Shown here piece after piece: positions 2,265-3,172 of a stretch of 23,727 bases of DNA. The stretch's first letter is position 1. Every line of letters begins with the position of its first letter. Source of the DNA: a virus (Duplodnaviria; Heunggongvirae; Uroviricota; Caudoviricetes); IMG/VR virus record IMGVR_UViG_2671180283_000006. The stretch is one strand, 5' to 3'. The notes under the pieces were generated by a model, which worked only from the letters and a program-made list of their open reading frames with translations, was not told the DNA's origin and made no database searches. The position numbers and the translations under genes were made by a program.

Positions 2265-2480
2265 ATGAAATCCATGGACAAAATTTCAACGGGCATTGCC
2301 TATGGCACCTCCGCAGGCAGTGCTGGCTACTGGTTTTTACAGCTGCTCGATAAAGTCACGCCCTCACAGTGGGCAGCAATAGGTGTGCTGGGTAGCCTGG
2401 TATTTGGCCTGCTGACGTACCTGACAAACCTTTATTTCAAGATTAAAGAAGACAAGCGTAAGGCTGCACGGGGAGAGTAA
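2265..2480 (+). CDS. S: Class II holin (phage 21 S-type pinholin) with dual-start motif
   Basis: 71 aa [31 protein letters not shown]...; two Met codons at 2265 and 2274 (MKSM), two predicted TM helices, charged C-terminus [26 protein letters not shown]. Confidence 0.85.
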
Positions 2481-2484
2481 TTCA

Positions 2485-2829
2485 ATGACTCAAAAATATG
2501 AACTGATTGTGAAAGGGATCCGCAATTTTGAGAATAAAGTTACGGTAACTTTAGCGTTACGGGACAAAGAACGCTTTGACGGTGAAATTTTTGACCTGGA
2601 CATCTCGCTGGACCGTGTTGAAGGTGCCGCGCTGGAGTTTTATGAGGCAGCAGCCAGAAGGAGCATCAGACAGGTCTTCCTGGATGTTGCTGCCGGGTTA
2701 TGTGAAGGGGATGAGCTGTCGCCGGAAAAGCGCCCCATAATTTTAGAGGCGCAGAATGTGTGGATAACCTACAAAGGAAAGCTACCGGGAAGAATTACTG
2801 GTTCTCTGAAGACTCCGCCGAAATGGTAA
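2485..2829 (+). CDS. YdfR-like (DUF1327) lysis-cassette-associated protein with divergent C-terminus
   Basis: 114 aa; N-terminal two-thirds (MTQKYELIVKGIRNFENKVTVTLALRDKERFDGEIFDLD...EGAALEFYEAAARRS) resembles Qin YdfR as recalled; starts 4 nt after the holin stop. Confidence 0.5.
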   Translation: MTQKYELIVKGIRNFENKVTVTLALRDKERFDGEIFDLDISLDRVEGAALEFYEAAARRSIRQVFLDVAAGLCEGDELSPEKRPIILEAQNVWITYKGKLPGRITGSLKTPPKW

Positions 2830-3067
2830 TTTCACCAGCATATTTTTCTTCCAGTAATACCGCCAGCCACTTGAAAGAATTTTGTTGTTGCTGGGACCAT
2901 TTGGGGTTGAGTGATTCAAGCTGGAGCGATGCCAGTGTTGGTTGCATTTGTTCCTTGGGAATTGAGAATGCCAGATATGAAAATGCGACAGTAAGGGCAT
3001 TTACATCATCCCGAAGCTTGGAAATGCAGTCGAGCAACTCCTGTAGAGAAATGGTGCTATTGTCCAT
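2795..3067 (-). CDS. Hypothetical small protein, convergent to the lysis genes
   Basis: About 90 aa from ATG at 3067 (MDNSTISLQELLDCISKLRDDVNALTVAFSYLAF...); minus-strand RBS GAGAGGA 6 nt upstream; ordinary amino-acid composition; overlaps the 3' end of the YdfR-like gene by about 35 nt. Confidence 0.35.
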   Translation of the reverse strand: MDNSTISLQELLDCISKLRDDVNALTVAFSYLAFSIPKEQMQPTLASLQLESLNPKWSQQQQNSFKWLAVLLEEKYAGEITISAESSENQ

Positions 3068-3172
3068 AAACAATCCTCTCTATTGTATTTAACTATTCCT
3101 TGCCTGATTCAACAGGCCGGGACAGATAAACATATCCAGGGTTCAGAAACCGATAAATCCTGATAAATATCC

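Follow-up and report, generated by a model that had tools for sequence, protein, structure and literature searches.

A small reverse-oriented gene, probably a passenger, in a recurrent exchange slot upstream of the endolysin gene of a phage-21-type lysis cassette

We analyzed a stretch of 23,727 nucleotides (nt) from a virus of the Caudoviricetes (IMG/VR record IMGVR_UViG_2671180283_000006), here referred to as the window, and in particular a small minus-strand gene, orf90, located between the holin gene (S) and the lysozyme gene (R) of its lysis cassette. On the basis of open reading frame (ORF), Pfam, and tRNA calls, we assign the left end of the window to the late region of a lambdoid prophage (Table 1). 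The cassette is of the phage 21 type, with a class II P21-type holin, a lysozyme with a hydrophobic N terminus (MNVKIRYGLSAAVLALIAVGAP), and an Rz gene with an embedded lipoprotein gene, Rz1; the latter is the ORF at 3977 to 4123, nested in the ORF at 3712 to 4248, and its product begins with MKKPVICLFLLISLVGCS. Judging from homology, S and R would behave as a pinholin and a signal-anchor-release (SAR) endolysin, respectively. An earlier note on this DNA had called attention to ca. 690 bp between the two genes, and the gap indeed measures 692 bp (2481 to 3172), from the end of the holin ORF at 2480 to the start of the lysozyme ORF at 3173. As described there, it carries a YdfR-like gene (a DUF1327 member, 145 bits) and a convergent minus-strand ORF of 90 amino acids (aa) with a good ribosome-binding site (GAGAGGA) that overlaps the 3' end of ydfR, in this case by 35 nt (2795 to 2829). 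The untranslated gap before R on the plus strand is 343 nt long, and orf90 lies there. Escherichia coli strain IPCEC31 has DNA 100% identical to positions 2200 to 3800, where the RefSeq annotation lists, at identical positions, essD, a "YdfR family protein," a minus-strand "hypothetical protein" (WP_000370545.1), rrrQ, and a hypothetical protein. An Rfam scan detected only tRNAs, with no family within 2480 to 3172.

By the evidence of sequence comparison, orf90 is a genuine protein-coding gene of phrog_2411, a small, catalogued but uncharacterized family (PHROGs v4, unknown function). The frame was intact in 10 of 10 diverged copies, the window included, over a range of 71 to 100% nucleotide identity. 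On the opposite strand, a longer shadow ORF (2760 to 3092) was interrupted by stops in six of the nine copies besides the window, and the coding strand was settled by this difference in integrity. The plus-strand ORF was thus ruled out as the true gene, both by its stops and by a Ser- and Cys-rich translation (18 Ser and 7 Cys in the 89 residues of its ATG-to-stop part, 2823 to 3089). Pairwise ratios of nonsynonymous to synonymous substitution rates (dN/dS) were 0.17 to 0.38 for orf90 and equally low, 0.15 to 0.45, for the shadow frame because the third codon positions of the two coincide, so that this parameter is uninformative as a coding-strand test when used alone. The protein of the window is a member of phrog_2411, identical without any difference to WP_000370545.1 of RefSeq genomes, and it matched the profile over its full length (residues 1 to 90 of 90; E value, 2.2e-59); the same profile was matched by all 15 close and distant homologues that were aligned. 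From E. coli, Shigella, and E. albertii, 63 clusters of orf90 proteins were recovered, almost all of them with a length of exactly 90 aa. When 1.8 billion representative proteins were searched with a profile, relatives of 81 to 97 aa with 26 to 45% identity were added (E values of 1e-15 to 1e-4). In the lysis-cassette copies, the Shine-Dalgarno (SD) sequence is kept.

The gene is common. Of the 5,426 complete E. coli genomes, 1,221 (ca. 22%) contained its DNA and 1,129 contained the full 692-bp interval. Carriers include REL606, a BL21-derived strain (Rosetta2-DE3), CFT073, and the sequence type 131 (ST131) strain EC958, whose allele is 86% identical, as well as the phages Chlobot, vB_EcoS-783R2, and phiSTEC1575-Stx2k. 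Counts of empty versus occupied alleles obtained with junction queries are only approximate, since pieces get joined across the insertion. A close-family scan of GTDB species representatives yielded only Escherichia ruysiae, with the same architecture, and a genome-collection scan with a second pattern found no relatives. In E. coli B (REL606, NC_012967.1, 1414178 to 1420467), the S-ydfR-orf90-R-Rz block is found within the Rac remnant, between sieB/ydaF and trkG, with a slightly shorter holin gene (213 bp); orf90 is gene ECB_RS07100 of this strain. In phiSTEC1575-Stx2k (locus L014, 1285 to 3303), a class II holin gene, ydfR, and orf90 are followed by two more holin-like genes and an M15 metallopeptidase gene instead of the lysozyme gene, making up a hybrid lysis region whose holins are apparently redundant.

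Relatives were also found away from lysis cassettes. Among the diverged copies, one lies downstream of the autotransporter gene of an IncF plasmid, and another is beside iha in the uropathogenic E. coli strain F11, with the first 23 nt of R still attached. Among the distant homologues, P0068 and P0071 are located antisense between the lambda-like tail genes M and L, P0066 is antisense upstream of DUF1441/terminase genes, P0077 is chromosomal, between dinI and bssS, and P0072 and P0075 represent two further chromosomal loci. Because of these locations (between tail genes, near terminase genes, near dinI/bssS, and on a plasmid), the phrog_2411 family does not appear to be tied to lysis genes.

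Within the cassette, a close point of comparison is the Qin prophage of E. coli K-12 (essQ-ydfR-rrrQ-rzpQ), which has the same S-ydfR-R-Rz order and a YdfR protein 68% identical overall, with invariant blocks in residues 1 to 77, the part conserved in the alignment of the two proteins. It differs in that its YdfR has 103 aa and another tail from ca. residue 70, and the ydfR stop overlaps the start of R, leaving no slot and no minus-strand gene. Nucleotide similarity to the window does not extend past ca. 2692, and the tails of the two proteins show no relationship. The earlier note had stated that the C-terminal third of the window protein no longer looked YdfR-like, which holds against K-12 YdfR but not against the family. 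The Pfam DUF1327 profile (PF07041) gave 145.1 bits (cutoff, 25) and aligned residues 1 to 112 with profile positions 1 to 92 of 93, phrog_406 aligned over 114 of 114 residues, and the YdfR proteins of AVS0973 and 774, neither of which has orf90, were 93 to 95% identical through residue 112. The tail thus aligned in full to known YdfR-family sequences, contrary to what had been proposed, and is a normal, widespread family variant that is also found without the minus-strand gene. Nor is it bound to one N terminus; strain A34 encodes a protein that has only residues 74 to 112 in common with the window YdfR, from nt 2704 onward, fused to a different N-terminal part, and in PhiR5_1 and Stx2-86 the tail module continues into long C-terminal extensions. 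A recombination junction had also been placed near 2700. There is a module boundary at that point (ca. 2692 against K-12 and 2704 against A34), but the comparisons indicate that it is an older domain boundary within the YdfR family, common to thousands of genomes and unlinked to orf90, whose own limits are at 2820/2821 and 3113 to 3129.

As for what YdfR does, residues 1 to 72 of the K-12 protein suffice for binding the N-terminal (catalytic) half of RNase E, and RNA copurifies; K-12 ydfR is essentially silent under standard growth, and its overexpression changes the transcriptome little (PMC13232886). Given the conserved N-terminal domain, the window YdfR is a putative RNase E binder as well. 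No match for YdfR was found in a PADLOC-DB search (E ≤ 1).

The limits of the orf90 module became clear from relatives with other contents at the same place. In AVS0973 and 774, collinearity with the window extends up to YdfR codon 112 and resumes at ca. 3113 to 3128, with 20 to 60 bp of unrelated filler in between. After codon 112, YdfR ends in KW in the window, in ESQP in AVS0973, and in LG in 774. In PhiR5_1, the Stx2-converting phage 86, and strain A34, homology to the window is lost at 2820/2821 and regained at 3129. Thus, the left boundary of the module is at 2820/2821 and the right one at 3113 to 3129, and the part specific to orf90-bearing genomes spans ca. 2821 to 3112. The G+C content of the module is 41.4%, versus 47 to 54% in the flanking ydfR, S, and R genes. 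Between the window and EC958, synonymous divergence (dS) was 2.0 for S, 0.03 for ydfR, and 0.31 for orf90. The S-ydfR-orf90 region is a mosaic, the pieces of which were exchanged independently.

The slot, delimited by YdfR codon 112 and by the 44 nt before R, is bounded identically in each of four architectures (window 2821 to 3128; L028, 1297 to 1870; L029, 1297 to 2175; and L034, 1905 to 2895). Across phages and prophages, it holds either 20 to 60 bp of filler or one of at least three unrelated minus-strand small genes. PhiR5_1, Stx2-86 (orf5/orf6), and A34 resemble the window in the slot boundaries (2820/2821 and 3129) and in having a small gene convergent with a DUF1327 gene. They differ in that their DUF1327 proteins have long C-terminal extensions of 211 to 268 aa, which enter the slot, and in that their minus-strand genes are unrelated to orf90. 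The PhiR5_1 gene encodes 86 aa, and Stx2-86 orf6 and the A34 gene belong to one family of 104 to 118 aa, with 60% identity to each other. Homology of orf90 to these other slot genes was rejected (hhalign probability of <1% and no BLASTP match). Phage 21 and Stx2-phage cassettes have a homologous class II holin and lysozyme, but in them S is directly followed by R, with neither ydfR nor slot, and both genes fit within ca. 680 bp. As the earlier note held, the interval is extra DNA relative to such cassettes, many of them in Stx2 phages with S abutting R. The inserted material is layered, ydfR being a first optional element and the slot downstream of it a second. A natural 501-bp deletion in L010 (NZ_OZ261667.1, 1691 to 2991) fuses window position 2542 to 3044, so that most of ydfR and orf90 is lost and S and R are intact.

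The same boundaries bear on the convergent overlap. Residues 1 to 82 of orf90 are encoded by the module, and residues 83 to 90 plus the stop are the antisense of the conserved ydfR codons for "...GSLKTPP." Conversely, ydfR runs two codons (KW) into the module before its stop. Homology of the IncF-plasmid copy ends at 2828 and that of the F11 copy ends at 2850, both with unrelated C termini. In the AlphaFold2 model, tail residues 80 to 90 have predicted local distance difference test (pLDDT) values below 50 and are predicted to be disordered. Since each gene reads only a few codons into the DNA of the other and this tail is predicted to be disordered, the 35-nt overlap would most simply be the by-product, or scar, of a recombination joint. 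Distant phrog_2411 homologues also overlap unrelated convergent small ORFs at their 3' ends, by 7 to 17 nt (L019, 5001 to 5476; L027, 456 to 869; and L023, 821 to 1325; two of the three are among those between tail genes M and L), a pattern more in keeping with tight packing than with a specific antisense partner. The idea that they have a convergent partner in common was rejected, as the partners of 71, 60, and 85 aa are related neither to one another nor to YdfR.

The orf90 product is a small acidic protein (10.2 kDa; isoelectric point, 4.3; grand average of hydropathy, −0.28). AlphaFold2, run with an 18-sequence alignment (mean pLDDT, 78), predicts three helices (residues 8 to 34, 38 to 52, and 59 to 77). 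We found no membrane-spanning segment, the longest hydrophobic run being ca. 13 residues within the predicted soluble three-helix bundle (no dedicated transmembrane predictor was used). The protein had no match in Pfam, NCBIfam, or the PADLOC-DB defense profiles (E ≤ 1), a sequence profile search of the PDB found no relative, and fold searches returned only generic helical matches. Literature searches with the protein accessions, phrog_2411, and "Ybl58" (the UniRef name of the ST131 allele) retrieved no paper, and a search on morons and lysis cassettes retrieved nothing relevant. As to expression signals, a 7-bp-stem hairpin followed by four U residues (Table 1) may be the terminator of orf90 or of antisense transcription, or it may be a coincidence; it lies within the conserved part of ydfR that encodes the tail and is also present in genomes without orf90.

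Taken together, the data lead us to regard orf90 as probably an independent, low-G+C, reverse-oriented passenger gene, that is, a moron. The moron concept reportedly goes back to Hendrix/Juhala and the lambdoid phages. A known example is bor of lambda, which lies beside Rz, is transcribed against the direction of the late operon, and has a described role in serum resistance; in the classical case, a moron is expressed in the lysogen, and its promoter and terminator can be demonstrated. As in morons, orf90 is a single extra gene, present or absent among collinear phages, located between late genes and of distinct base composition, here in reverse orientation. Its presence or absence between collinear relatives has sharp boundaries (AVS0973 and 774 represent the empty alleles), and its G+C content is unlike that of its flanks. 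It differs from a classical moron in that both its promoter and its terminator signals are unconvincing and in that it has no described function, whereas bor has one. An independent cargo was among the suggestions of the earlier note, and this one is borne out by the separability of orf90, which is absent from collinear genomes, has a lower G+C content, and has homologues in unrelated contexts. We propose that ydfR would be a regular but optional late-operon gene of P21-type cassettes, composed of a conserved domain (residues 1 to 73) and a 39-residue tail module (residues 74 to 112). A recombination slot would open right after YdfR codon 112 ("TPP") and close 44 nt before R, filled in this case by a module of ca. 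290 bp with orf90 opposite to late transcription. Q-antiterminated late transcription would be expected to run through the module to R. The product of orf90, a predicted cytoplasmic three-helix protein, would act independently of the lysis genes, presumably produced in the lysogen under the control of a promoter of orf90 itself, with a function unrelated to lysis. At the level of a guess, it could modulate, by protein binding, a factor of the host or of an incoming phage.

Several observations weigh against a passenger gene of this kind. A standard promoter scan of the minus strand upstream of orf90 found none, and the sole sigma-70-like candidate there (TTGAAT-19-TACAAT) is weak, with a poor 19-nt spacer and almost no leader, and does not amount to evidence of a promoter. 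Structure and profile searches provided no functional clue, and frameshifted orf90 variants exist in some lineages. The F11 copy was partly rejected as an independent context, since the retained start of R marks it as a lysis-cassette fragment. Furthermore, every lysis-cassette copy examined adjoins a long-form ydfR, so that a functional link to YdfR or R is possible, and the recurrence of minus-strand small genes in the slot could result from selection for a factor that acts on R and not from neutral docking.

These last points are the substance of two other explanations. In one of them, orf90 would gate lysis by antisense RNA, by transcriptional collision, or by a protein that restrains the endolysin or holin, and would thereby set lysis timing or shield the lysogen from leaky R. 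The gene does converge with the late operon, overlaps ydfR by 35 nt, and sits inside the 343-nt gap before R; in different phages, at least three unrelated minus-strand small genes occupy this slot immediately before R, and P0066 is likewise antisense upstream of late genes, beside terminase genes. However, there are many working cassettes in which S directly adjoins R or in which ydfR is present and orf90 absent, and family members are found in tail operons, chromosomes, and a plasmid with no lysis genes nearby. Purifying selection at the protein level and the SD sequence indicate that a protein, not RNA alone, is the product, and its hydrophobic stretch is too short for a transmembrane segment, unlike those of antiholins. 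We consider such a gate unlikely, and with members of the family between tail genes M and L, near dinI/bssS, on a plasmid, and beside iha, the role in lysis timing suggested in the earlier note is unsupported. Alternatively, orf90 and the other slot genes could act together with the DUF1327 protein, for instance, by modulating its interaction with RNase E or RNA. The constant company of long-form ydfR in the lysis-cassette copies examined, the DUF1327-type proteins that also precede the other slot genes, and the binding of RNase E and copurification of RNA by K-12 YdfR (PMC13232886) would agree with a functional pair. Long-form YdfR is nevertheless common without orf90, homologues of orf90 occur without any DUF1327 gene, the distant ones have convergent partners that share no relationship with one another or with YdfR, and the divergences of ydfR and orf90 are discordant, all of which makes this pairing very unlikely.

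That there is no functional gene at all, orf90 being a decaying remnant or an annotation artifact, or the plus-strand ORF being the real one, is in our view highly improbable. The shadow ORF is the longer of the two (110 aa) and has a similar dN/dS owing to the coinciding wobble positions, and the frameshifted variants, the lack of a convincing promoter, and the lack of Pfam, NCBIfam, or PADLOC matches could be read in the same way. Yet it is the shadow ORF that is broken in most other copies and Ser/Cys rich, and it is orf90 that is intact down to 71% nucleotide identity, with a conserved SD sequence and with equally long remote homologues in other taxa and contexts. A reading that goes further than a passenger gene takes the slot to be a dedicated docking site, which lambdoid phages of Escherichia would fill with interchangeable reverse-oriented small genes that form a functional class, expressed in the lysogen and guarding against premature endolysin expression or having anti-phage or anti-defense functions, instead of being neutral passengers. 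In it, phrog_2411 would be one of at least three unrelated families used and would also insert antisense in tail operons, with 3'-end overlaps. We judge this combination to be distinctly unlikely; if true, a common lysogen role of the slot genes would be of moderate interest.

Table 1 Features at the left end of the window
Feature	Positions	Strand	Basis or remarks
DUF968 gene fragment	24-314		
RusA	327-701		
Antiterminator Q	698-1519		
tRNA cluster	1663-1972	+	Between Q and S
Class II (phage-21-type) holin S, 71 aa	2265-2480	+	Pfam Phage_holin_2_1, E 8.7e-36; essD in identical RefSeq DNA
YdfR-family (DUF1327) gene, 114 aa	2485-2829	+	Pfam DUF1327, phrog_406, RefSeq "YdfR family protein"
YdfR N-terminal domain, residues 1-73	2485-2703	+	Alignment; conserved across all family variants
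YdfR tail module, residues 74-112 (EGDE..SPEKRPIILEAQNVWITYKGKLPGRITGSLKTPP)	2704-2820	+	Not in K-12 YdfR, widespread elsewhere
Hairpin (7-bp stem, 9-nt loop) + UUUU, possible terminator	2752-2724	−	Inside ydfR, ca. 45 nt past the orf90 stop
Shadow ORF, 110 aa	2760-3092	+	Wobble positions in common with orf90; judged not a gene
orf90, 90 aa, ATG start	2795-3067	−	phrog_2411; residues 83-90 + stop are antisense of ydfR
Variable exchange slot	2821-3128	None	Between YdfR "TPP" codons and conserved 44 nt before R
orf90 Shine-Dalgarno GAGAGGA	3080-3074	−	7 nt between GAGG core and ATG
Sigma-70-like candidate TTGAAT-19 nt-TACAAT	3112-3082	−	Weak
Lysozyme R, hydrophobic N-terminal (SAR-like) segment	3173-3715	+	Pfam Phage_lysozyme, E 1e-23; annotated rrrQ
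Rz	3712-4248		Embedded lipoprotein (Rz1) ORF, 3977-4123
Minus-strand ORF, 230 aa	4417-5109	−	Downstream of Rz
DUF1441 + terminase genes			After the 4417-5109 ORF

Two neighboring features deserve mention. The 230-aa minus-strand ORF downstream of Rz has a G+C content of 33.8% and a full-length match to phrog_13652, and no match in Pfam, NCBIfam, or PADLOC. It occupies what we take to be the position used by lambda for bor, just downstream of Rz, and from its sequence it looks like a second reverse-oriented moron. In the tRNA cluster, ARAGORN called Met(CAT), Lys(TTT), Thr(TGT), and Gly(TCC), and RefSeq calls the CAT tRNA Ile. The Lys tRNA call (1740 to 1816) is absent from the RefSeq annotation of the identical DNA and has no Rfam tRNA match, and it may be degenerate.

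The main value of these results is for annotation, to the benefit of those who study lysis cassettes or the prophages of E. coli B, BL21, CFT073, and ST131. The coding strand of the interval is established, the YdfR tail is a normal variant, the overlap would be a recombination scar rather than a regulatory device, and the exchange slot upstream of R is now precisely bounded. Being present in ca. 22% of complete E. coli genomes, laboratory workhorses included, and having no known function, orf90 is a cheap target for knockout or overexpression. The interval itself reflects ordinary phage mosaicism at a recombination hot spot, with no new lysis mechanism, and the most interesting by-product of the analysis is a slot with sharp limits that recurs and accommodates unrelated small genes in reverse orientation.

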